From assembly GCA_964469525.1 (NCBI GenBank), contig CAYXYU010000001.1, positions 266,144 through 330,143 on the forward strand: a stretch of DNA of 64,000 nucleotides, read 5' to 3'. Made by a program: the position numbers and the translations under genes. The notes under the pieces are model-generated. The model was not told the DNA's origin. It did not search any database and saw only the letters and a list, made by a program, of their open reading frames with translations. The stretch is from an uncultured Rickettsiales bacterium. GTDB lineage: Bacteria > Pseudomonadota > Alphaproteobacteria > Rickettsiales > SXRF01. Within the stretch, counting starts at the first letter, position 1. Each line of letters begins with the position of its first letter. This document shows positions 9,443 through 57,445 of the stretch, piece after piece.

Positions 9443-10074
9443 TGCCGCTACTTTATCTGGCACTGGCTCTTATTGCCTTCGCCGCGCTGGCGGTGCTGGC
9501 ATGGCCAGTATGGCGGGCGCAGGATATCCCGCTGCCGCAGCGCAAACGGGCAGTTTTGGCGCTGGCGGCGTTCTTTTTTCTCGGCGGCTTCGGGTTGTAT
9601 CAACTGTTGGGCACGCCGGAGATCGTGCCATTGCTGAAGGCGCGCGAGGAAAAGCTGGCGGAGATAAAAGAAACCGTTCTGCGCCGCTCGCAGGAAGTCC
9701 AGTCGGACCCGAAAAACCTGGGGGCATGGGTCGAACTGGGGCAGAGCTTCATGGAAATCGGGCAGTTCGACGGGGCAGCGAATGCGTTCAAGCAGGCGGT
9801 GCTGATTTCCGAAGGGCACCCTGCCATCATCATGGCCTATGCCAAGGCGCAGATCGCGGCGGCAGACGGCAAGGTGACCGACCAAGCGAAAAAAGGCTTG
9901 GAGATGGTGCTGCTGCAGGAACCCGAGAATCAGGAAGCGCGCTACTGGCTGATCGTCCGGCAGCTGCAGGATGGTAGGCAGGAGGATGCGATGCGGTCGA
10001 TGAAGGAACTATACCGCTCGTTGCCGGATGATTCGCCGCTGAAGGAGCGGATCAACCGGCAGATTGGGCGTTAG
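9442..10074 (+). CDS. ccmI: Cytochrome c-type biogenesis protein CcmI/CycH-like (TPR)
   Basis: The start is taken at the ATG at 9442, which forms a TAATG overlap with the ccmH stop. The product has two N-terminal TM helices followed by TPR-like repeats. It is shorter than classical CycH. Confidence 0.65.
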   Translation: MPLLYLALALIAFAALAVLAWPVWRAQDIPLPQRKRAVLALAAFFFLGGFGLYQLLGTPEIVPLLKAREEKLAEIKETVLRRSQEVQSDPKNLGAWVELGQSFMEIGQFDGAANAFKQAVLISEGHPAIIMAYAKAQIAAADGKVTDQAKKGLEMVLLQEPENQEARYWLIVRQLQDGRQEDAMRSMKELYRSLPDDSPLKERINRQIGR

Positions 10075-10946
10075 AACCGTGCCGGATCGGCGGGGTAAAC
10101 GCCTAAAACCGACACTTTTTTGCAATAAAAACTCAGCTCTTCGAGCGCATTTTGCACTGGTTTCTGGCTCGGATGGCCTTCGCAGGTGAGGAAAAACTGC
10201 GCCGATTCGCGCGCCGCGCCGCCCGGAATATAGCTCTCGAGCTTCACAATATTGACATTATTGGTCGCAAAACCGCCCAGAGATTTATACAAAGCGGCCG
10301 GAATATTACGCACTGAGAACAGGAGCGTGGTGAGGATACGCGTGCCTTCCTGCGGCTCGGGATCAATCGGTTCGCGGGCGATGATGATGAACACCGTCAC
10401 GTTGTCGTCCGAATCCTGCATATGCTCTTTGAGCACGGTGAGCCCGTAAAGCTGCCCGGCGAGCGGCGAGGCGATGGCAGCTTTAGTGGGGTCGTTCCAT
10501 TTCGCCACGTCGGCGGCGGCGGCGGCGGTGTTGGAATAGGTGTGCGTAGTGAGCTTCAGTTGACGCAGGTTATCGCGGCATTGCAATAACCCCTGCGGAT
10601 GCGAATATACATCTTTAACTGTCTTCAGCGTGGCGCCTTTGGGGGCCAGCAGCTGATGCTCAATATGCTGGAAATACTCCCCGACGATATGCAGATTAGT
10701 TTTAGGCAGCAAATGATGGATCTCCGCCACGCGTCCGGCCTGCGAATTCTCGATGGGGATCATGCCGAGCGCCGCCTTGCCCGACGCCACTGCCTCGAAC
10801 ACATCTTCGAAACTGGGGCACGGCAGGGTCTGCATGTACGGGCAGGCCTGACGGCAGGCCAGATCGGCATTGGCCCCTTCCACGCCCATAAAGGCAATGG
10901 TATTTTCGGGATCGATGATGGCTTGAGGCACGGTTGTACTGGACAT
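10071..10946 (-). CDS. pheA: Prephenate dehydratase
   Basis: The PDT domain shows in GVEGANADLA and IPIENSQAGRV. The C-terminal ACT domain shows in TTLLFSVRNIPAALYKSLGGFATNNVNIVKLESYIP. Confidence 0.88.
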   Translation of the reverse strand: MSSTTVPQAIIDPENTIAFMGVEGANADLACRQACPYMQTLPCPSFEDVFEAVASGKAALGMIPIENSQAGRVAEIHHLLPKTNLHIVGEYFQHIEHQLLAPKGATLKTVKDVYSHPQGLLQCRDNLRQLKLTTHTYSNTAAAAADVAKWNDPTKAAIASPLAGQLYGLTVLKEHMQDSDDNVTVFIIIAREPIDPEPQEGTRILTTLLFSVRNIPAALYKSLGGFATNNVNIVKLESYIPGGAARESAQFFLTCEGHPSQKPVQNALEELSFYCKKVSVLGVYPADPARF

Positions 10947-11000
10947 AAGCTAATAAAAATCCTAAATAAGAGGGCTTTAATAACATGTAACAAAGCAATT

Positions 11001-11067
11001 GTCATCCTCGGGCTTGCCCCGGGGGTCCATTTTTAAAAGAATGGATTCCCGCCTTCGCGGGAATGAC
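11001..11067. repeat. Short two-hairpin palindromic element of the GTCAT...ATGAC class
   Basis: The sequence is GTCATCCTCGGGCTTGCCCCGGGGGTCCAT, a 12-nt spacer, then GGATTCCCGCCTTCGCGGGAATGAC. The terminal GGGAATGAC supplies the ATG at 11063. Confidence 0.85.
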
Positions 11068-12439
11068 AAAGAAAGCATATGAAATGACTGTCAAAAAATG
11101 GACCCCCGAAACCTGGCGCAAGCTGCCGATCAAGCAGCAGCCGGAATATAAAAATGCCCAGCAGTTAAAGGCGGTTGAGGGGCAGCTGGCGATGATGCCG
11201 GTGCTGGCGTCGCCCGATGAGGCGCGGGCGTTGAAGCGCGAGCTGGCGCAGGCGGCGGTGGGCAAGGCGTTCCTGCTGCAGGGTGGCGATTGCGCGGAGA
11301 GTTTTGCCGAGTTTTCCGAGGATAACCTGCGCCGGTTTTTCCGGGTATTGCTGCAGATGACCATGGCGCTGATGTATGGCGCGGGGGTGCCGGTGGTGAA
11401 GGTCGGGCGCATCGCCGGGCAGTTCGCCAAGCCGCGCTCGGAAGGTACGGAGAAAAAAGAAGGTAAGGAGCTACCGGCCTATCGCGGCGACATGGTCAAT
11501 GCCATGGAGTTCGACGAAAATGGGCGCATACCCGATCCCGAGCGGCTGCTTCGCGCCTATTACCAAGGCGCGGCGACCATCAATTACCTGCGCACGCTGG
11601 CGCGTGGCGGCTATGCGTCGCTCAACCGCATCAACCGCTGGAACATGGAGTTCGCACAGAGTTCGGCGCAGGGCAAGCGCTTCTCCGACCTGGTGGCGCG
11701 CATCAATGAGTGCATCGGCTTTATTTCGGCTTGCGGCCTGCCGATCGACGAGGTCGAGCAGTTCTCTGAGGCCAGCTTCTTCACCTCGCACGAGGCGCTG
11801 CTGCTCAATTATGAGGCGGCGCTGACCCGATTCAGCAAGACGGATGAGAAATATTACGCCGGATCGGCGCATATGCTGTGGATCGGTGACCGCACGCGCT
11901 CGCCCGACGAGGCGCATGTCGAGTTTATGCGCGGCATTGCCAATCCGATTGCGATGAAGTGCGGCCCTTCGATGACGACGGACGGCCTGCTCAAACTGAT
12001 CGACATCCTGAACCCCGAGAACGAACCGGGGCGCCTCACCCTGATTTCGCGCATGGGCGCGACCAAGGTCGGCGAGCTGTTGCCGCCGCTGGTACGTGCG
12101 GTGCAGAAGGAAGGCCGGAGCGTCGTCTGGTCGTGCGATCCGATGCACGGCAACACCATCAAGTCGCCCAACGGCTATAAGACGCGCAAATTCACCGACA
12201 TCCTGACCGAGGTGCGCCAGTTCTTCGCCGTGCACAAGGCGGAAGGCACGGTGGCAGGCGGCATGCATTTTGAGATGACCGGGCAGGACGTGACCGAATG
12301 TTTAGGCGGCGCGCAGGCGATTTCGGAGATGAATCTTTCGGACCGGTATCACACCCACTGCGACCCACGTCTTAACGCTTCGCAATCACTGGAGCTGGCG
12401 TTTTTGATTGCCGAGACGCTGAAGAAGCAGAAATCCTAA
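11063..12439 (+). CDS. 3-deoxy-7-phosphoheptulonate (DAHP) synthase, class II
   Basis: The 458-aa product has class II hallmarks: [35 protein letters not shown] and CDPMHGNT. The start is either the ATG at 11063 (inside the repeat terminus) or at 11084. Confidence 0.88.
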
Positions 12440-34701: not shown

Positions 34702-37700
34702 ATGGCTAAACACTATTACCCTGAGGTCGATCCCAACCCCGATTTCTCTGTCATTGAAAAGGCAGTGCTGGCCTACTGGAAAAAGGAAAAACTATTTGAA
34801 AAATCAGTGGATGCCCGTCCTGCTTGCAAGAATAGCGAGCTCAATGAGTTCATTTTTTACGATGGTCCGCCCTTTGCCAACGGCCTGCCGCATTACGGCC
34901 ACCTGCTCACCGGCTATGTAAAGGATTTATTCGCCCGCTACCAGACCATGAAGGGCAAGCGCGTCGAGCGCCGCTTCGGCTGGGACTGCCACGGCCTGCC
35001 GGCGGAAATGGGTAGCGAAAAAGAGCTGGGCATTTCCGGTCGCGCCGCCATCACCAATTTCGGCATCGGCAAATTCAACGAGCATTGCCGTACCTCGGTG
35101 ATGAAATACACGCAGGAATGGGAAGAATACGTGACGCGCCAGGCGCGCTGGGTGGATTTCAAGAACGACTACAAAACCATGGACATCAACTTCATGGAGT
35201 CCGTGCTGTGGGCGTTCAAGCAGCTTTATGATAAAGGCCTGGTGTTTGAAGCCTATCGCGTGATGCCCTATTCCTGGGCCGCCGAAACGCCGCTTTCGAA
35301 TTTTGAAACCAAGCTCGATAATTCGTACCGCGAACGCGAGGACAAAGCCATCACCGTGGCGTTTGAACTCAACACGCCGCCGCACGGTGCACCGAAAGCC
35401 GATAAATATTATGTGCTGGCATGGACGACCACGCCATGGACACTTCCGAGTAACCTGGCCTTGGCGGTGAATGCAGAAAATGAGTATGTGTGCATTCGTC
35501 ATTCCCGCGAAAGCGGGAATCCAGTTTGTTATATTATAGGTGCTAACGCTGTAGCTAGATATGCAAAAGAATTTGGTGATGCCGAAGGAAAAGTAAGTGT
35601 GGATTCCCGCTTTCGCGGGAATGACGTGGTAGGATTAAGCTACCACCCCCTCTTCCCGTACTTTGCCTCGCATAAGCATTCGTTCAAGATTCTGGATGGC
35701 TCGTCGTTCGTTAGCGATGCCGACGGTACCGGCATCGTGCATATGGCGCCGGGGTTCGGTGAGGACGACCAGAAGGTGTGCGAGGCGAACGGTATCGAAA
35801 TCGTCGTGCCGGTCGATGGGCAGGGCAAATTCACCGACAAGATATACGATATTCCCTATCCTCGTCATTCCCGCGAAGGCGGGAATCCATACTCTGAGAC
35901 GGTGGTTATGGACCCCCGCCTGCGCGGGGGTGACGAAGTATTGAGTCTCAAAGGCCTCAACGTCATCGCCGAGCCGGGCGGCAGCAAGTTCGGTTTGGCC
36001 AATGACAGAATCATTGATTACCTCAAGGCCACCGGCCAGCTTATCAAGCAGGAGCAGATCAAGCACAACTACCCGCATTGCTGGCGCACCGACACGCCGC
36101 TGATTTACCGCGCCATGCCGAGCTGGTATGTCGAGGTGACTAAATTCCGCGACCGTGCGGTGGAGATGAACAAGCAGATCAACTGGATTCCCGCGCACAT
36201 CCGCGACGGGCAGATGGGGCATATGCTGGCCACCGCGCCTGACTGGTCGATTTCGCGTAACCGCTTCTGGGGCACGCCGATACCGGTGTGGCGCTCCAAA
36301 TCCGGTAAGATAAAAGTGTTCGGCAGCATCGCCGAAATCGAAAAAGCCAGCGGCCAGAAAGTCAAAGACCTGCACCGCCCGTATATCGACGAGATCGTCA
36401 TCCACGAGGGCGGTGAGGAATACCGCCGCGTCGAGGACGTGTTCGATTGCTGGTTCGAATCGGGCAGCATGCCGTTCGCGCAGGTGCATTATCCGTTCGA
36501 GAACAAGGACTGGTTCGAGGCGCATTTCCCGGCCGATTTCATCACCGAATATGTCGGCCAGACGCGCGGCTGGTTCAATACGCTCATCATGCTGTCGACG
36601 GCGCTATTCGACAAGCCACCCTTTCAGAATTGCGTGTGCCACGGCGTGGTGCTCGATTCGGAAACCGGCCTGAAATATTCCAAGCGCCTGAAGAATTACA
36701 AGGACCCGATGGAAGTGATGGACAAGTTCGGGGCCGACGCGCTGCGCTGGCTGATGATTTCCTCGCCCGTGATGCGCGGCATGGACCTCTCGGTTGATCC
36801 TGAAGGCAAATTTATCCGCGACGTGGTGCGCCTGGCCATCAAGCCGATCTGGAACGCGTATAATTTCTTCTGCTTGTACGCGAATGCGGATGGCATCAAG
36901 GCGAAATTCTTAATTGATTCAGAGAATGGAATGGATCGGCATATTTTAGCCAAGTGTAAGCAAACAGTGGAAAGCATTGAACAATCGCTTGATGTGTACG
37001 ATACGCCCAGTGCTTGTGATGCCGTATCTGTCTTTTTCGAGGTGCTTAACAACTGGTACATTCGTCGCAGTAAAACACGTTTCTGGGCTGAAGAAAAAAC
37101 CCAAAGCAAGCAAGAAGCTTATGACACGCTGTATACAGTACTTGTAATAATTTGTCGCGCAGCTGCCCCTCTTTTGCCCATGACATTAGAAGAAATCCAC
37201 CGTGGCCTTACTGGTGAAGAGAGTGTTCATTTGATGGATTTCCCAGATGTAAAAAGTCTCAATGTGGATGAAAACCTGGCAAGAGAAATGGATTTCGCAA
37301 GAGACATTTGCAATGCTGCACTTGCAGTACGCAATGCTGCTAATATTCGTGTGAGGCAACCGCTTGGTAAAATGACCTTGGTTGGTAATCGGCAGTTTCC
37401 ACTTGGTTTGGGAGCAATAATAGCAGATGAAATAAACATAAAGAATTTTTCTAATTCAAAAGATCTTAAACAATACGCCACTCTCAAACTCTCCATCAAC
37501 AACCCCGTCCTCGGCAAGCGCCTTCCTGCCCTGATGAAGCAGATTATTCCTGCTTCCAAGAAGGGTGAGTGGAAACAGGTGGACGGCACGGTGGAAATTT
37601 GCGGTGAGAAGCTGCTGCCTGGTGAATTCACGTTGCAACTCGAACCCAAGCCCGAATACAAGGACCGGGCGCAGGCACTCTCTACCAACGATGCGCTGGT

Positions 37701-37995
37701 GATCCTCGATACCACCATCACGCCCGAGCTTGAGGCCGAGGGCATCGCGCGCGACCTGGTGCGCATGGTCCAGCAGGCGCGCAAGGATGCGGCGCTGGAT
37801 GTATCGGACAGGATCCGGCTGCACATCGGCGCGCCGGAGCCGATCGCCAAAGCGGTGGCGGCGCATAAATCATATGTCATGGAGCAGACGCTGTCGGTCG
37901 AGCTTTCCGAGAAAAAACCGGAGCCGGCCATCTTCTCTACCGAGAACACGCTCGACGACCAGAAGGTGATTATTTCCTTTGCCATTGCGGCCTAA
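34702..37995 (+). CDS. ileS: Isoleucine--tRNA ligase, type 2 (eukaryote-like), carrying two in-frame repeat insertions
   Basis: The 1097-aa product has the HYGH (HIGH-class) motif in PPFANGLPHYGHLLTGY, a KMSKS-class motif (KYSKRLKN), and IleRS editing and anticodon-binding regions. It stays open through the repeats at 35498..35625 and 35864..35934. Confidence 0.92.
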   Translation: MAKHYYPEVDPNPDFSVIEKAVLAYWKKEKLFEKSVDARPACKNSELNEFIFYDGPPFANGLPHYGHLLTGYVKDLFARYQTMKGKRVERRFGWDCHGLPAEMGSEKELGISGRAAITNFGIGKFNEHCRTSVMKYTQEWEEYVTRQARWVDFKNDYKTMDINFMESVLWAFKQLYDKGLVFEAYRVMPYSWAAETPLSNFETKLDNSYREREDKAITVAFELNTPPHGAPKADKYYVLAWTTTPWTLPSNLALAVNAENEYVCIRHSRESGNPVCYIIGANAVARYAKEFGDAEGKVSVDSRFRGNDVVGLSYHPLFPYFASHKHSFKILDGSSFVSDADGTGIVHMAPGFGEDDQKVCEANGIEIVVPVDGQGKFTDKIYDIPYPRHSREGGNPYSETVVMDPRLRGGDEVLSLKGLNVIAEPGGSKFGLANDRIIDYLKATGQLIKQEQIKHNYPHCWRTDTPLIYRAMPSWYVEVTKFRDRAVEMNKQINWIPAHIRDGQMGHMLATAPDWSISRNRFWGTPIPVWRSKSGKIKVFGSIAEIEKASGQKVKDLHRPYIDEIVIHEGGEEYRRVEDVFDCWFESGSMPFAQVHYPFENKDWFEAHFPADFITEYVGQTRGWFNTLIMLSTALFDKPPFQNCVCHGVVLDSETGLKYSKRLKNYKDPMEVMDKFGADALRWLMISSPVMRGMDLSVDPEGKFIRDVVRLAIKPIWNAYNFFCLYANADGIKAKFLIDSENGMDRHILAKCKQTVESIEQSLDVYDTPSACDAVSVFFEVLNNWYIRRSKTRFWAEEKTQSKQEAYDTLYTVLVIICRAAAPLLPMTLEEIHRGLTGEESVHLMDFPDVKSLNVDENLAREMDFARDICNAALAVRNAANIRVRQPLGKMTLVGNRQFPLGLGAIIADEINIKNFSNSKDLKQYATLKLSINNPVLGKRLPALMKQIIPASKKGEWKQVDGTVEICGEKLLPGEFTLQLEPKPEYKDRAQALSTNDALVILDTTITPELEAEGIARDLVRMVQQARKDAALDVSDRIRLHIGAPEPIAKAVAAHKSYVMEQTLSVELSEKKPEPAIFSTENTLDDQKVIISFAIAA
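35498..35625 (+). repeat. 128-bp two-hairpin element inserted in frame in ileS
   Basis: GTCATTCCCGCGAAAGCGGGAATCCAG is followed by a 74-nt spacer of 36% GC and then GGATTCCCGCTTTCGCGGGAATGAC. It is translated as RHSRESGNPVCYIIGANAVARYAKEFGDAEGKVSVDSRFRGND (43 codons, 35497-35625). Confidence 0.85.
35864..35934 (+). repeat. 71-bp two-hairpin element inserted in frame in ileS
   Basis: GTCATTCCCGCGAAGGCGGGAATCCAT is followed by a spacer and then GACCCCCGCCTGCGCGGGGGTGAC. It is translated as [24 protein letters not shown] (24 codons, 35863-35934). Orientation and reading frame match the first insertion. Confidence 0.88.
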
Positions 37996-50932: not shown

Positions 50933-51975
50933 ATCATGGCCTCGGTAGAAGCAACGGTAATTGACCCCCACCTTGATCCTCCCCCTTCCAGGGGGAGGAC
51001 ACTATTGTCCAGCCCGTCATAGAACCGGCGGATTTCGTCTTTCACTTGTGCCGGGTCGGTGAGAGTATTGATACGTTGGCGGTAGGAAGCTGAGCCGTTC
51101 AAGCCCGAGGAATACCAGCCGATATGCTTGCGTGCCACCATGACGCCGTTCTCGACGCCGTAATGCGACAGCATTTCGTCATAATGGTTCAGCACGATGT
51201 CGCGCTGTTCATCGAGCGGCGGCGCGGGCGGTCTTTTCCCGGTGCGCAGGTAATGGCCCACCTGCGCCGGGAACCATGGGCGGCCATAAGAACCGCGCCC
51301 GATCATCACCCCGTCGGCACCGGATTCGAACAGCGCGCGATCGACCTCTTCGAAACTGGTAATGTCGCCATTGACGATCACCGGCAGCTTGGTTGCTCCT
51401 TTTACCGAGCGGATGAACTTCCAGTCGGCGTGACCTTTATACATCTGGCAGCGCGTGCGGCCGTGGACGGTTAGCATTTGGATGCCAGCCGCTTCCGCGA
51501 TTTTTGCCATGCGGGGGGCATTGCGACTGTTGTCGTCCCAACCGGTGCGCATCTTGAGCGTCACGGGAATCTTCACCGCTTTGACGGTAGCTTCGAGAAT
51601 TTTTCCTGCCAGTACTTCGTCGCGCATCAGGGCCGATCCGGCATGGCCACCGACAACCTTTTTCACCGGGCAACCGAAATTGATGTCGATGATGTGCGCG
51701 CCGCGGTCCTCGTTGAGCTTCGCCGCCTCGGCCATCACTTCCGGGTCGCAGCCCGCCAGCTGAATGGCGAAGGGGTACTCGCTCGGGCAGAAACTGCTCA
51801 TGCGCTTGAAGTTTTTATTGTCGATCAGCGCTGCCCGCGAGGCAATCATTTCGGATACGACCATCCCGACGCCGAAGCGCTTGGCCAGCCGGCGGAACGG
51901 CAGGTCGGACACGCCGGTCATCGGCGCCAGCCAGACCGGGTCTTTTACGGTAAGTGTACCGATGGTGATGCCCAT
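50929..51975 (-). CDS. dusB: tRNA-dihydrouridine synthase B (NifR3-like)
   Basis: The product has the [19 protein letters not shown] and VNGDI motifs. It sits directly upstream of ntrBC, as in other alphaproteobacteria. The start is taken at MGITIG (51975). Confidence 0.88.
50977..50999. repeat. Perfect 9-bp hairpin TCCTCCCCC-TTCCA-GGGGGAGGA inside the dusB 3' coding region
   Basis: I read the hairpin directly. It is translated in dusB as VLPLEGGG. Confidence 0.8.
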
Positions 51976-52140: not shown

Positions 52141-53316
52141 ATGAGCGAAACGACCATAGCCCTGCTGGTAGCGGGCGGGAAAAGCGAGCGCATGCAGGCG
52201 GATATACCCAAGCCCTACCTGCCGCTCGCCGGTGAGCCCATAATGCGGCGGGCGGCGGCGGCATTCCTTAATCACCCCGGCATTGACGGCGTGCGGGTGG
52301 TCATTCGCCGCGAGCATCATGGACTTTACAAGAAGGCCATGGACGGGTTGACGCTGTTCCCCTGCGTCGTGGGCGGCGATTCCAGGCAGGAATCAGTACG
52401 GCTGGGGCTGGAAAGCATTGTCGACCGTAAACCCCGCTACGTATTGGTTCATGATGTAGCCCGGCCTATGGTCAGCCAGGCGCTGATCTCGCGCGTGCTG
52501 GAGGGTTTGAAAACGCATCCCGCCGTCATTCCGGGGCTGCCGGTGGCCGATACGGTGAAGCGTGTTGAGAACGGGCGGATCAGCGCGACCGTCGCGCGGG
52601 AAGGCTTGTATGCCGTGCAGACGCCGCAGGGGTTCCATTTCGACGCGCTGTATGCGGCACATCAGCGCTTCAGGGGCGAACAGCTGACCGATGACGCAGC
52701 GCTGCTTGAAAAAGCGGGGAACGTAGTTACACTGGTCGGGGGTGAACGTGGAAACATCAAAATCACCACGGAAGCGGATTGGAAAGCCATGCAGTCGATG
52801 CTCAGCCAGCAGATGGAAACGCGCACCGGCTTCGGCTTTGACGTGCATGCCTTGAAGCTGCATGATGGCGGCTCGCAGCAGCAGATCAAGTTGTGCGGCG
52901 TGCGGATTCCCTTCACACATTACCTGGAGGGGCACTCCGACGCTGATGTCGGATTGCACGCGCTGGTCGATGCCATATTGGGGGCGATCGGCGCCGGCGA
53001 TATCGGCATGCATTTTCCGCCGGAGGACCCCAAGTGGCAGGGCGCCGATTCGGAGCGATTTCTCCTGCACGCCTATCAACTGTTGCACCGCAAAGGTGGT
53101 GAACTGGTGCATCTCGATGTGACGCTGATCTGCGAGCGCCCGAAAATCGCTACCTACCGGGAGCAGATGCGAAACCATATCGCGCAGCTGCTGAAGCTGC
53201 CGGTGGAGCGTATCAGTGTCAAAGCGACAACGACGGAAAAACTCGGCTTCACCGGCCGCGGCGAAGGCATCGCGGCGCAGGCAGTGGCAACGGTGAGGTT
53301 GCCTGCGGTGGTATAA
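52141..53316 (+). CDS. ispDF: Bifunctional MEP cytidylyltransferase / MEcPP synthase
   Basis: The N-terminal IspD part shows LVAGGKSERM. The C-terminal IspF part shows GFGFDVHAL...GHSDADVGLHALVDA. Confidence 0.9.
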   Translation: MSETTIALLVAGGKSERMQADIPKPYLPLAGEPIMRRAAAAFLNHPGIDGVRVVIRREHHGLYKKAMDGLTLFPCVVGGDSRQESVRLGLESIVDRKPRYVLVHDVARPMVSQALISRVLEGLKTHPAVIPGLPVADTVKRVENGRISATVAREGLYAVQTPQGFHFDALYAAHQRFRGEQLTDDAALLEKAGNVVTLVGGERGNIKITTEADWKAMQSMLSQQMETRTGFGFDVHALKLHDGGSQQQIKLCGVRIPFTHYLEGHSDADVGLHALVDAILGAIGAGDIGMHFPPEDPKWQGADSERFLLHAYQLLHRKGGELVHLDVTLICERPKIATYREQMRNHIAQLLKLPVERISVKATTTEKLGFTGRGEGIAAQAVATVRLPAVV

Positions 53317-53320
53317 TATC

Positions 53321-53393
53321 GTCATTCCCGCGAAGGCGGGAATCCATGCTTCTCCATTTGCGTGGCATGGATACCGGCCTGCGCCGGGATGAC
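53321..53393. repeat. 73-bp two-hairpin element of the GTCAT...ATGAC class
   Basis: GTCATTCCCGCGAAGGCGGGAATCCAT is followed by a spacer and then GGATACCGGCCTGCGCCGGGATGAC. It starts 4 nt after the ispDF stop. Confidence 0.85.
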
Positions 53394-53414
53394 AGGAAGA
53401 TTAGTGAGGAATAA

Positions 53415-53993
53415 ATGGAACAAAACGGAATAAAAGATACCCCCCCACCCTTTCCTCTCCATCAAGGGGAGAGGGTAAATAAGTGGTGGTGGTACATCGC
53501 CACCTGGTTCGGTTGCGGGCTATCGCCGAAGGTGCCGGGGACGGTGGGCTCGCTCGGCGCGCTGCCGGTCGGGTATGTCATCCATGTGACGCTCGGCGGC
53601 TTTGGATTGCTTGCCGCTTCGGTGCTGATGTTCCTGCTCGGCTGGTGGGCGTCGAACGAATACCTGAAACGCTATGGCGGCGACGACCCCGGGCAAATTG
53701 TGGCGGATGAGGTGGCGGGCCAGTGGCTGGTGCTGTCGGTGCTGTTTCCGACCTGGCAGTCGTATCTCGTGGCGTTTCTGTTGTTCCGTCTGTTCGATAT
53801 CGTGAAGCCATGGCCAGTATCGCTCGCTGATGAAAAAATCAAAGGCGGTCTCGGCGTAATGTTCGATGACATGCTGGCGGGGTTGTATCCGGTGCTGATC
53901 TACCTATGTATCCTGCTTGAGGCGCAGCTTTTCGGTTCGCAGGAAATACTGCTGCCGGTGATGAATTTCCTGGGTGGAAGTTATGTTCAGTAA
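53415..53993 (+). CDS. pgpA: Phosphatidylglycerophosphatase A
   Basis: The product has the FGCGLSPKVPGTVGSLGALP and FRLFDIVKPWP motifs. The N-terminal 25 aa include a hairpin-encoded PPPFPLHQGERV segment (53447-53476). Confidence 0.82.
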   Translation: MEQNGIKDTPPPFPLHQGERVNKWWWYIATWFGCGLSPKVPGTVGSLGALPVGYVIHVTLGGFGLLAASVLMFLLGWWASNEYLKRYGGDDPGQIVADEVAGQWLVLSVLFPTWQSYLVAFLLFRLFDIVKPWPVSLADEKIKGGLGVMFDDMLAGLYPVLIYLCILLEAQLFGSQEILLPVMNFLGGSYVQ

Positions 53994-54471: not shown

Positions 54472-54473
54472 CT

Positions 54474-54555
54474 GTCATCCCGGCGAAGGCCGGGATCCAT
54501 GCCCATACCCATTCGCAAGCGGAAAAGCATGGATTCCCGCCTACATGGGAATGAC
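54474..54555. repeat. 82-bp two-hairpin element of the GTCAT...ATGAC class
   Basis: GTCATCCCGGCGAAGGCCGGGATCCAT is followed by a spacer and then GGATTCCCGCCTACATGGGAATGAC. It lies 2 nt after the cinA-like stop and 4 nt from the glmU stop. Confidence 0.85.
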
Positions 54556-54559
54556 AAAC

Positions 54560-56011: not shown

Positions 56012-57295
56012 ATGGAGGCGCTGTTCGCGCTGTTCGGGGCGATGCTTGGCGGCGGGCTGGCCTGGACGGCATTCAGGAACCGGTCCATGCATACCGTCAG
56101 CCGTTCCCAGTATGACGAGGTGGTGAAAGAGCGCGTGGCCATAGCCACCCGGTTAGAATCGGCGCAGGAGACGCTGGAGAACGTGCAGCGCGAGCTGACC
56201 GCCTACCGCGAGCGGGCGGTGACGGCGGAGGCGGAGAATAAGGCGCTCAGCACGCGCCTCTCCGAGCAGCAGGAGCAGCTGCGGCTGGAGTTCAGCAATA
56301 TGGCCAATGCCATGCTGGAAAATATGGGCAAGAAATTTTCTACCCAGTCGGAGGAAAAGCTTGGCATGCTCTTGCACCCGGTGCAGCAGCGGCTGAACGA
56401 GTTCAAGGAGCTGGTGACCAAATCTTTCATCGATCATGGCAAGGAACAGCACACGCTGAAAGCCGAGATCGAAAAAATCGTGCTGCAGGCCGACAGTCTG
56501 ACCAGGGCGCTGCGCGGCGACGTCAAGGCACAGGGCAACTGGGGCGAGATCATGCTGGAGCGCATCCTCGAGGAATCGGGGTTGCGCGCCGGGGAGGATT
56601 ATATCGTGCAGGGCGCGGACATGAAGCTGACCGGCACTGACGGCAACCGGTTGCAGCCCGACGTTATCGTGCGCCTGCCGGACAAGAAGCACATCATTGT
56701 CGATTCCAAAGTGTCGCTGGTCGACTATGAGCGTTTCTGCGGCGAAATCGACGACACAGCACGGGCGCTGCATATAAAAAATTTTCTCAAATCCGTGCGC
56801 AACCATGTTACCGGGCTGGAGCAGAAGAAATACCAGAATATCGACTCGTTGGGCACGCCTGATTTGGTGCTGTTGTTCATGCCGACGGAAGGTTCCTTCT
56901 CATTCGCCATGCAGCATGATCCAGAACTGCATACGTTCGCATGGAATAAGAAAATCAATATCGTCAGCCCTACCACCCTGTTTTCCAACCTGCGCACCAT
57001 CGCCTCGCTGTGGAGTATCGAGCGGCAGAATCGCCACGCGCAGGAGATCGCCCGGCAGGCCGGGGCGTTGTACGATAAATTCGCCGGCTTCATCGAGGAC
57101 ATGCAGGGCATCGACCGCCATATCAAGCGTCTGCATGAGAGTTACGATCAGGCGATGAATAAACTTTCCTCGGGCCGCGGCAATCTCATCACCAGTGTCG
57201 AGAAGCTGAAAGCGCTCGGCGTGAAAAGTTCTAAGTCGCTGCCGGTTGGCGAGGCAGAGGAAACGGCGCTGATCGAGGCGGAGAAGGTGGCGTAG
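56012..57295 (+). CDS. rmuC: DNA recombination protein RmuC
   Basis: The product has an N-terminal TM, a long coiled coil and a C-terminal RmuC nuclease-like domain (PDVIVRLPDKKHIIVDSK...FMPTEG). Confidence 0.82.
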   Translation: MEALFALFGAMLGGGLAWTAFRNRSMHTVSRSQYDEVVKERVAIATRLESAQETLENVQRELTAYRERAVTAEAENKALSTRLSEQQEQLRLEFSNMANAMLENMGKKFSTQSEEKLGMLLHPVQQRLNEFKELVTKSFIDHGKEQHTLKAEIEKIVLQADSLTRALRGDVKAQGNWGEIMLERILEESGLRAGEDYIVQGADMKLTGTDGNRLQPDVIVRLPDKKHIIVDSKVSLVDYERFCGEIDDTARALHIKNFLKSVRNHVTGLEQKKYQNIDSLGTPDLVLLFMPTEGSFSFAMQHDPELHTFAWNKKINIVSPTTLFSNLRTIASLWSIERQNRHAQEIARQAGALYDKFAGFIEDMQGIDRHIKRLHESYDQAMNKLSSGRGNLITSVEKLKALGVKSSKSLPVGEAEETALIEAEKVA

Positions 57296-57303
57296 GCTAC
57301 TAT

Positions 57304-57445
57304 CCCCTCTCCCGCATTGCGGGAGAGGGTTAGGGTGAGGGTGAGGGCACTTGGTTTATAGTGCGAGAAAGCGCCCTCACCCGGTTTCCTAAGACTTGCT
57401 GCGCAAGCCTAAGGAAACCGGCCTCTCCCTCAATGAGGGAGAGGC
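57304..57445. repeat. Stack of four consecutive stem-loops between rmuC and era
   Basis: The four hairpins are CCCCTCTCCCGCATTGCGGGAGAGGG, GGGTGAGGGC...GCCCTCACCC, GGTTTCCTAAGACTTGCTGCGCAAGCCTAAGGAAACC and GCCTCTCCCTCAATGAGGGAGAGGC. Confidence 0.8.

Follow-up and report, generated by a model that had tools for sequence, protein, structure and literature searches.

Palindromic repeats found inside the reading frame of an essential gene raise two questions, that of their origin and that of what keeps them there. In a 64,000-nt stretch of DNA from an uncultured Rickettsiales bacterium (GenBank assembly GCA_964469525.1, contig CAYXYU010000001.1, positions 266,144 to 330,143 of the forward strand; hereafter, the window), the ileS gene for isoleucyl-tRNA synthetase (IleRS) carries in-frame hairpins at two sites. 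An initial annotation, made from the letters of the window alone, read both as foreign elements, of 43 and 24 codons, from a family analogous to the Rickettsia palindromic elements (RPEs) but distinct from them in sequence. The explanation that we hold to be probable differs on several of these points. Both features are repetitive extragenic palindromes (REPs) of the CGTC-1 family, which would be tolerated as selfish DNA in a functional ileS gene. Site 2 is an ordinary insertion. Site 1 would be an old pair of REP units, the DNA of which owes its constancy to templated correction together with a constraint acting at the level of the REP itself.

The gene (34702-37995, + strand) encodes a type-2 IleRS of 1097 aa in an uninterrupted open reading frame (ORF). 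The protein has a HIGH motif (HYGH, 34891-34902, + strand, residues 64-67), a KMSKS motif (KYSKR, 36673-36687, + strand, residues 658-662) and the two editing-site motifs WTTTPWTLPSN (residues 241-251) and GTGIVHMAPGFGEDD (residues 342-356). Its best matches in the PDB are type-2 and eukaryotic enzymes (yeast, human, Priestia megaterium IleRS2 and Thermus IleRS). An AlphaFold2 model, built from a 56-sequence alignment (mean pLDDT 78.5), agrees with the type-2 structures, P. megaterium IleRS2 and yeast IleRS being the best structural matches. Thus, HIGH, KMSKS, the CP1 editing motifs and the predicted fold are all those of a type-2 IleRS. Both hairpin sites lie between HIGH and KMSKS in the editing (CP1) domain, where they had been placed from the outset, site 1 after the WTTTPWTLPSN motif and site 2 after the GTGIVHMAPGFGEDD motif.

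The comparisons presented here use 120 orthologous IleRS of 60-100% identity, all from metagenome-assembled genomes labelled Rickettsiales or Alphaproteobacteria. Pfam domains tRNA-synt_1, Anticodon_1 and DUF5915 were matched on the ileS orthologues, and the gene order Cys_Met_Meta_PP - PAS_5 - ileS - PCMT is kept among the relatives' loci. Since the window, like all its relatives, comes from metagenomes, and since repeats can be mis-assembled, one may ask whether the hairpins were wrongly assembled into ileS or whether the gene is a decaying copy. Either is hardly credible. The same arrangement is found, with conserved synteny, in independent assemblies (JGI, ENA, Logan, NCBI), the frame and all motifs are intact, and the protein is conserved while its synonymous sites are saturated. 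From the intact ORF, the motifs, the predicted fold and the synteny, the gene is apparently functional.

The hairpins belong to a family that recurs in the window. Its core, ATTCCCGCNNNNGCGGGAAT, has eight matches against 0.09 expected, a count reached by none of 100 shuffled sequences. A unit consists of a CGTC or TGTC tag, an 8-bp stem formed by ATTCCCGC and GCGGGAAT, whose first two pairs are A-T, a 4-nt loop (GAAA or GAAG) and a CCA tail. The tag is CGTC at 35497-35500, 35863-35866 and 53320-53323 and TGTC at 25147, 54473 and 11000; units of the orthologues are tagged with one or the other. The tail reads ...GGGAATCCA at both ileS left arms, TGGATTCCC at the right arm of site 1 and TGGACCCCC at site 2. 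Each of the six loci of the window consists of two inverted units around a spacer of about 15 to 76 nt, and two of the six are inside ileS. The other four are intergenic, with no strand assigned: 11000-11068, a dimer of the same superfamily that separates the genes of prephenate dehydratase and DAHP synthase, its left arm being a variant and its right arm canonical; 25147-25272, a long form of the CGTC-1 dimer with a spacer of about 72 nt, between hflX and the gene of a solute-binding protein; 53320-53394, between ispDF and pgpA; and 54473-54556, between cinA-like and glmU-like genes, where the left arm is the ATCCCGGC variant. Genes flanking the dimers belong to housekeeping families only (Pfam on 10 neighbouring ORFs). 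A search of the whole window against Rfam at gathering thresholds returned a tRNA at 60521-60609 and no match at the palindromes. In six ileS loci of relatives (L081-L086, 8-11 kb each), the sole CGTC-type units are inside ileS, and the intergenic DNA on either side has none; the repeat is thus locally concentrated in ileS in these genomes.

This anatomy has been described previously. CGTC-1 REPs are defined by a terminal CGTC or TGTC tag (CCTC is also allowed), a stem of 8 bp whose first pairs are A-T, a loop of 4 nt and a tail reading CCA. Most of them form inverted dimers, the two units being 20-100 bp apart; they are most frequent in Alphaproteobacteria, and CGTC REPs are not known to have a dedicated transposase (Di Nocera, De Gregorio & Rocco 2013, PMC3733652). 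Judged by their structure, the ileS hairpins are CGTC-1 REPs, every published feature of tag, stem, loop, tail and dimers being present, and the family is not new. The resemblance extends to the dimeric arrangement, to the variable spacers and to the encoded peptides, such as (C/R)HSRE.G(N/D)P and DSR(F/L). Indeed, the supplement of the survey includes intragenic CGTC-1 units encoding CHSRESGDP, DSRFRGND and VIPAKAGI, and a CGTC-1 dimer was already listed in the IleRS of Erythrobacter litoralis (ELI_13550; PMC3733652). The ileS unit is also identical at 20 of 21 positions to the REPIN master sequence ATTCCCGCGCAGGCGGGAATC of Neisseria meningitidis (bioRxiv 10.1101/2021.07.10.451892), and it fits the 20-bp pattern ATTCCC-N8-GGGAAT, which is the consensus of Neisseria dRS3 (PMC1797815). 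CGTC-1 has been equated with both dRS3 and RPE-6 of R. conorii, RPE-4 corresponding to CGTC-4 (PMC3733652). Hence, the comparison with RPEs made in the initial annotation was apt, but the family is not distinct from them in sequence.

At least 120 genome stretches contain an exact copy of the 26-mer GTCATTCCCGCGAAGGCGGGAATCCA. Among the matches listed are Bacteroidota, Chloroflexota, Planctomycetota, Patescibacteria, Nitrospirales and many Proteobacteria, isolates included; cultured Massilia, Ramlibacter, Sphingomonas, Sphingopyxis, Thiohalobacter and Endozoicomonas are found there, as is a Rickettsia endosymbiont. Again among the matches listed, 26 of 120 stretches (L088-L207) have at least two units within 160 nt, forming dimers of 66-141 nt with unrelated spacers. 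A literature search for the encoded peptide strings gave no match; with the nucleotide strings, the paper on Neisseria REPINs was found.

At site 2, the history of the element can be read from the orthologues. A block of about 27 codons (35857-35937, + strand, residues 386-412) is absent from the basal ones. It holds a left CGTC-1 unit (35863-35889, + strand), made of the CGTC tag, ATTCCCGC GAAG GCGGGAAT and the CCA tail, and a right unit (35909-35935, + strand) with the variant stem ACCCCCGC CTGC GCGGGGGT, which has kept its own perfect 8-bp hairpin. The 30-nt arms (35862-35891 and 35907-35936) are 83% complementary, and the predicted fold of the RNA has an energy of -54.7 kcal/mol (z=-5.5). 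At this position, 59 of 120 orthologues are basal and read ...FDLPDL(S/K/Q)LKGLNV without any insert, a short extra block is present in 49 and a domain-sized one (150-200 aa) in 10. An element missing from 59 of 120 orthologues within an ORF that stays open is what in-frame insertion of the RPE kind looks like. On this comparison, site 2 is a true REP-dimer insertion in a loop of the editing domain. The insertion first annotated there is thus upheld, as a lineage-specific block, and its size relative to the basal state is about 27 codons instead of 24. In the AlphaFold2 model, residues 389-411 have pLDDT values below 50 and lie between structured elements, so that the prediction for the insert is a disordered loop at the surface, which the fold can accommodate.

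The two ileS elements share their translation, RHSRE(S/G)GNP ... R(F/L)RG(N/G)D, and their common orientation and frame had been pointed out in the initial annotation. The common frame is real but unremarkable, because two of the three reading frames of a REP dimer are open; it is an event of about one in two. Orientation is uninformative, since an inverted dimer is alike on both strands save for its spacer.

The 49 short blocks at site 2 are diverse. They represent about nine palindrome families in various frames (our grouping of the inserted peptides) and, at the DNA level, they start with GTCAT and end with ATGAC. The large blocks are whole DUF559 or GNAT domains. This loop is an insertion hotspot, which tolerates and repeatedly receives inserts across the alphaproteobacterial clade. 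In-frame fusions within the IleRS editing domain involve DUF559 (PF04480/PF18741) in P0032, P0039, P0044, P0087, P0095 and P0119, and GNAT (PF13302/PF00583) in P0074, P0075, P0092, P0096 and P0115. At the loops of site 1, DUF559 is found in P0038 and GNAT in P0022, P0024, P0042, P0065, P0118 and P0120. Both domains occupy the same IleRS loops as the palindromes. In addition, the DUF559 blocks are edged by peptides of a PSP..GEG palindrome family, which suggests that a host ORF can take up genes flanked by palindromes.

Site 1 has a different architecture. A left CGTC-1 unit (35497-35523, + strand; CGTC tag, 8-bp stem ATTCCCGC/GCGGGAAT, GAAA loop and CCA) encodes RHSRESGNP, residues 266-274. 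The right unit (35600-35626, + strand), with a TTTC loop, is its exact reverse complement and encodes (V)DSRFRGND, residues 300-308; the two 27-nt arms are 100% complementary. Between them are 76 nt (35524-35599, + strand) encoding a strand (residues 275-280), a helix (281-291) and a loop. This enclosed segment is GC-poor, 36.8% against 53.3% for the coding sequence, and site 1 is sized and built like the long intergenic dimer at 25147-25272. It was from the low GC content that the whole 128 bp had been argued to be foreign.

The orthologues argue otherwise. The enclosed peptide VCYIIGANAVARYAKEFG is homologous to NICYILGAKRVSSYEKELG and to similar segments of hairpin-free orthologues, and with HMMER the yeast and human IleRS align across the whole region, the right-arm peptide SRFRGNDVVGL falling over EKIKGSDLVGL of the yeast enzyme. 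The segment is GC-poor in hairpin-free genes too (40% in L087, against 47% for its coding sequence, and 35% in L017), and the base composition is therefore no sign of foreign origin. Finally, the stretch from PWTLPSN to PLFPYF measures 62-68 aa in seven hairpin-bearing orthologues of the type found in the window (type A) and 62 aa in hairpin-free L087. With no net insertion and a native spacer, site 1 is not absent from orthologues as an RPE-like insertion would be; hairpin-free genes carry the homologous peptide, which is the very outcome that the initial annotation had named as refuting it. From these alignments, the spacer is native IleRS sequence and the 43 added codons are not there. Hence, that both elements would be wholly foreign and members of a new family, although site 2 does behave as foreign, has very little probability left.

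The structural model is in line with the alignments. The region is predicted with confidence (pLDDT 78-88) to run from strand 261-267 through a turn (268-274) and a second strand (275-280) to helix 281-291 and a last strand at 302-305. The left arm corresponds to the end of strand 261-267 and the turn 268-274 (pLDDT about 80), the spacer has pLDDT 78-85, and the right arm forms strand 302-305 (pLDDT about 88). According to the model, the right arm would encode a native-like beta-strand, RFRGND replacing K-I-K-G-S-D, and the left unit would widen a beta-turn. Type-B orthologues (HPGEGR...DPGLRRDD) keep a native GSDLI after the right arm, where in type A the arm's own GND is found. Because of this retained GSDLI, the type-B state looks like an intermediate, and insertion followed by trimming appears likely. 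In another orthologue, L004 (P0057), the peptide ARFRGNE is kept at the position of the right arm; its DNA, GCG CGT TTT AGA GGA AAT GAA, forms no hairpin and the left arm is absent. This peptide may be either a decayed arm under protein-level selection or a native look-alike.

Could the palindromes be removed from the ileS mRNA before translation? This possibility was rejected. Removing either one (128 and 71 nt, neither a multiple of three) would shift the frame, and at site 1 native sequence would be lost with it. Both must therefore be translated. The predicted tryptic peptides across the arms include ESGNPVCYIIGANAVAR, GNDVVGLSYHPLFPYFASHK and EGGNPYSETVVMDPR.

The question then becomes that of what maintains the pair at site 1. 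At least 14 orthologues, of types A and B and of a further variant, C, have it at identical positions, with the same arm boundaries in all holders: EY, four residues and H on one side, RGND, two residues and GL on the other. The seven type-A genes are deeply diverged, with amino-acid identities of 0.66-0.81 and a third-position identity of 0.37-0.58 at conserved residues. Nevertheless, all seven share 12 of the 13 arm codons that could be tested, whereas elsewhere in the gene they share 59 of 525 (Fisher p=1.4e-10). Left-arm codons are identical in the seven orthologues and, in the right arm, 6 of 7 testable codons are invariant. This constancy is limited to the arms. In the spacer, the codons for the invariant residues C276, Y277, I278, A283, R286, Y287 and A288 vary freely among holders, as do the codons just outside the arms among type-A genes. 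Codons 316-318 (PLF, 35647-35655; CCC CTC TTC) are outside the arms and yet identical in all seven type-A orthologues, which could be codon preference or chance.

Moreover, the arms change together. The loops are GAAA/TTTC in three sequences and GAAG/CTTC in five (four of type A and the type-B L002), with no mismatch; the arms are 100 nt apart, and within each local hairpin the loop position is not paired. When L002 is counted, changes on both sides are seen in seven arm-to-arm pairs; for the local hairpins, there are four compensatory pairs. As the sequences are related, these counts are descriptive and should not be read as probabilities. In the type-B and type-C variants also, both arms are altered together.

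The holders of the pair are scattered over a star-like neighbour-joining tree of the 120 IleRS. Identity in the rest of the protein is 0.75 between holders and 0.73 between holders and non-holders, and identity of the enclosed peptide is 0.59 among holders, 0.34 between holders and non-holders and 0.28 among non-holders. In addition, the close pair P0028/P0038 differs sharply in the site-1 segment. Such a distribution could suggest that the pair was gained recently and independently in each lineage by site-specific insertion, or that an arm-spacer-arm cassette spread recently by horizontal transfer. We regard these scenarios as improbable. Divergence at synonymous sites, both within the spacer and immediately beyond the arms, is as great as it is elsewhere in the gene; the cassette is not young, and its recent transfer cannot explain the identity of the arms and is excluded as its cause. 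Nor can a single insertion set two arms around a pre-existing native sequence, and the arm boundaries are identical in all holders.

Alternatively, the pair may be a cis-element selected by the host, with the arms under purifying selection as a 27-bp stem in the ileS mRNA, or as a DNA cruciform, that controls IleRS expression. It might act through RNase III processing, mRNA stability, the binding of a protein, or a pause of the ribosome while the editing domain folds. The restriction of codon-level invariance to the arms and their covariation are both in keeping with this idea. The RNA of site 1 is predicted to form a perfect 27-bp stem around the native segment, of high stability (-74.2 kcal/mol, z=-8.5). 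The pair persists in orthologues as diverged from each other as from non-holders, and the ileS arms are not simple matches of the other copies in the window. It should, however, be noted that the pair is missing from about 100 of the 120 orthologues, and that three have decayed or variant forms, so that it must be dispensable. L004 retains ARFRGNE after loss of the hairpin. The same sequence is an ordinary intergenic repeat in the window and across phyla, loop-matched arms are typical of CGTC-1 dimers everywhere (loops mostly match between the arms of dimers from unrelated genomes, among the matches listed), and no Rfam family matches the region. Therefore, we consider host selection of this kind unlikely, though not negligibly so.

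The selfish-repeat explanation accounts for the two sites together. CGTC-1 is a pan-bacterial, non-coding selfish repeat, usually residing between genes as inverted dimers. When it enters ileS, only stop-free, frame-preserving insertions in permissive places would survive. At site 1, two inverted REP units, probably old, sit on the connections to either side of a native strand-helix segment without making the region longer; many orthologues would have inherited the pair, and its arms would by now be part of the fold. Something other than protein-level selection would then keep their DNA constant. The most likely cause would be arm-to-arm templated correction, that is, quasi-palindrome template switching or gene conversion, and the REP-level constraint that keeps the CGTC-1 sequence identical across phyla would add to it. 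A precedent may be found in the coding palindromes of Nematomorpha mitochondria, whose arms are mismatch-free and for which template switching or repeat conversion, not function, was proposed as the cause (PMC6649704). These too are perfect inverted repeats in functional genes, with both arms coding. They are, however, gene-specific, organellar and up to 284 bp long, whereas the ileS arms are copies of a dispersed repeat family.

Several observations weigh against this explanation. Neither RAYT nor any other transposase was found in the window or in the loci of the clade, by Pfam on dimer-adjacent ORFs and by tblastn with RAYT fragments from the 2013 supplement (no hit at E<0.1), which agrees with the published remark on the missing transposase of CGTC REPs; mobility of the ileS REPs would thus follow from that of the family. 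The other A-type arms of the window carry GAAG/CTTC loops and ileS site 1 carries GAAA/TTTC, which weakens plain homogenisation to the commonest REP variant of the genome as a cause of arm constancy. Within 3-4 kb of ileS, the relatives have no further CGTC-1 copy as a potential donor. Furthermore, the star-like tree cannot separate a single origin of the pair from recombination or repeated loss. Finally, templated correction keeps the arms complementary but would not alone stop them from drifting, and yet the pair is nearly invariant, which leaves room for real selection on the hairpin.

With some doubt, then, and with no better than a small chance of being right, the site-1 pair can be viewed as a conserved structural element of the ileS coding sequence, a 27-bp mRNA stem or a DNA cruciform bracketing the strand-helix module of the editing domain, which would either regulate IleRS or mark an exchanged cassette. 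By analogy with what has been proposed for dRS3-flanked segments of Neisseria, it is conceivable that a REP-bounded cassette is exchanged between lineages. The conservation of the enclosed peptide, the scattered holders and the DUF559 and GNAT insertions at the same loops would fit this idea.

How do these features compare with known systems? Translation of palindromic repeats in essential genes is already documented by the Rickettsia work and by the 2013 survey of CGTC and GTAG REPs, and ileS does not define a new category. Genes hit twice by CGTC REPs have also been described; REPs in genes of the same category were usually at different sites, recB of two Xanthomonas species being the exception (PMC3733652). 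What the survey does not contain are orthologous intragenic units that are codon-identical across deeply diverged genomes, arms placed around native coding sequence and replacing native residues, and a single loop struck by many palindrome families. RPEs are likewise selfish palindromes lying in frame in housekeeping genes, where they are translated at positions thought to be compatible with the fold (PMC10969869, PMC3733652). The host, however, belongs here to a clade of metagenome-assembled genomes labelled Rickettsiales or Alphaproteobacteria, not to the genus Rickettsia, and its genes have about 53-57% GC. RPE-1 is longer (about 150 bp) and encodes a conserved peptide module. Moreover, the repeat identity of RPEs is reported, as cited in PMC6649704, to be lost over time, unlike that of the site-1 arms. 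Neisseria dRS3 and NIME share with the window the dRS3-spacer-dRS3 blocks, the GC-poor spacers and the doublets foldable as one long hairpin, but NIME form large arrays, whereas the window has isolated dimers only and no long arrays interleaved with RS repeat families. Inverted REP doublets able to form one long hairpin, as in REPIN-RAYT systems, are present in the window. Such systems also have a single-copy cognate RAYT gene with the same REP on its flanks, and no RAYT was found in the window or the clade loci. REPINs are described as almost exclusively extragenic, against two of six dimers inside ileS here.

An orthologous intragenic REP pair that is frozen at the codon level and encloses native sequence is therefore unusual. 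Its frozen DNA amid saturated synonymous sites provides a natural test between templated correction, element-level selection and host function. An arm that encodes a native structural strand would be selfish DNA absorbed into the protein core, and not merely the decoration of a loop. As for the site-2 loop, its nine or so palindrome families and two whole protein domains within one clade make it useful for the study of insertion tolerance and of domain accretion in aminoacyl-tRNA synthetases.

Other palindromes were observed in IleRS and in the window. Palindrome-encoded peptides occur elsewhere in IleRS, after PLFPYFA in P0007, P0009, P0017 and P0117, and at residues ~840-910 in P0003, P0037, P0053, P0080, P0089 and P0108; examples are ADRASVILSESEGSP... 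and VIPA(K/Q)AGIH, and the window protein has the basal length at those positions. In P0119, PLFPYF is followed by a GNAT domain. The window also has a second palindrome family, CCCTCTCCC...GGGAGAGGG, which encodes PSPxGEG-type peptides. It is represented by an intergenic pair (57305-57329 and 57421-57445) after an ORF ending at 57295, and by a copy at about 53440-53470, at the 5' end of the pgpA ORF and ahead of the PgpA domain, whose first residue is 28. The palindrome TCCTCCCCCTTCCAGGGGGAGGA (50977-50999), which we grouped with this second family, lies past the Dus domain, in the 3' tail of the dus ORF; the next gene overlaps the 3' end of dus and starts close to this palindrome. As regards the host, the window encodes prephenate dehydratase, a class-II DAHP synthase and a fused IspDF (10074-12439 and 52141-53313). 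Biosynthesis of aromatic amino acids and isoprenoids, together with a GC content of about 57%, is unlike the classical obligate intracellular Rickettsiales, and the nearest relatives are labelled 'Rickettsiales bacterium'.

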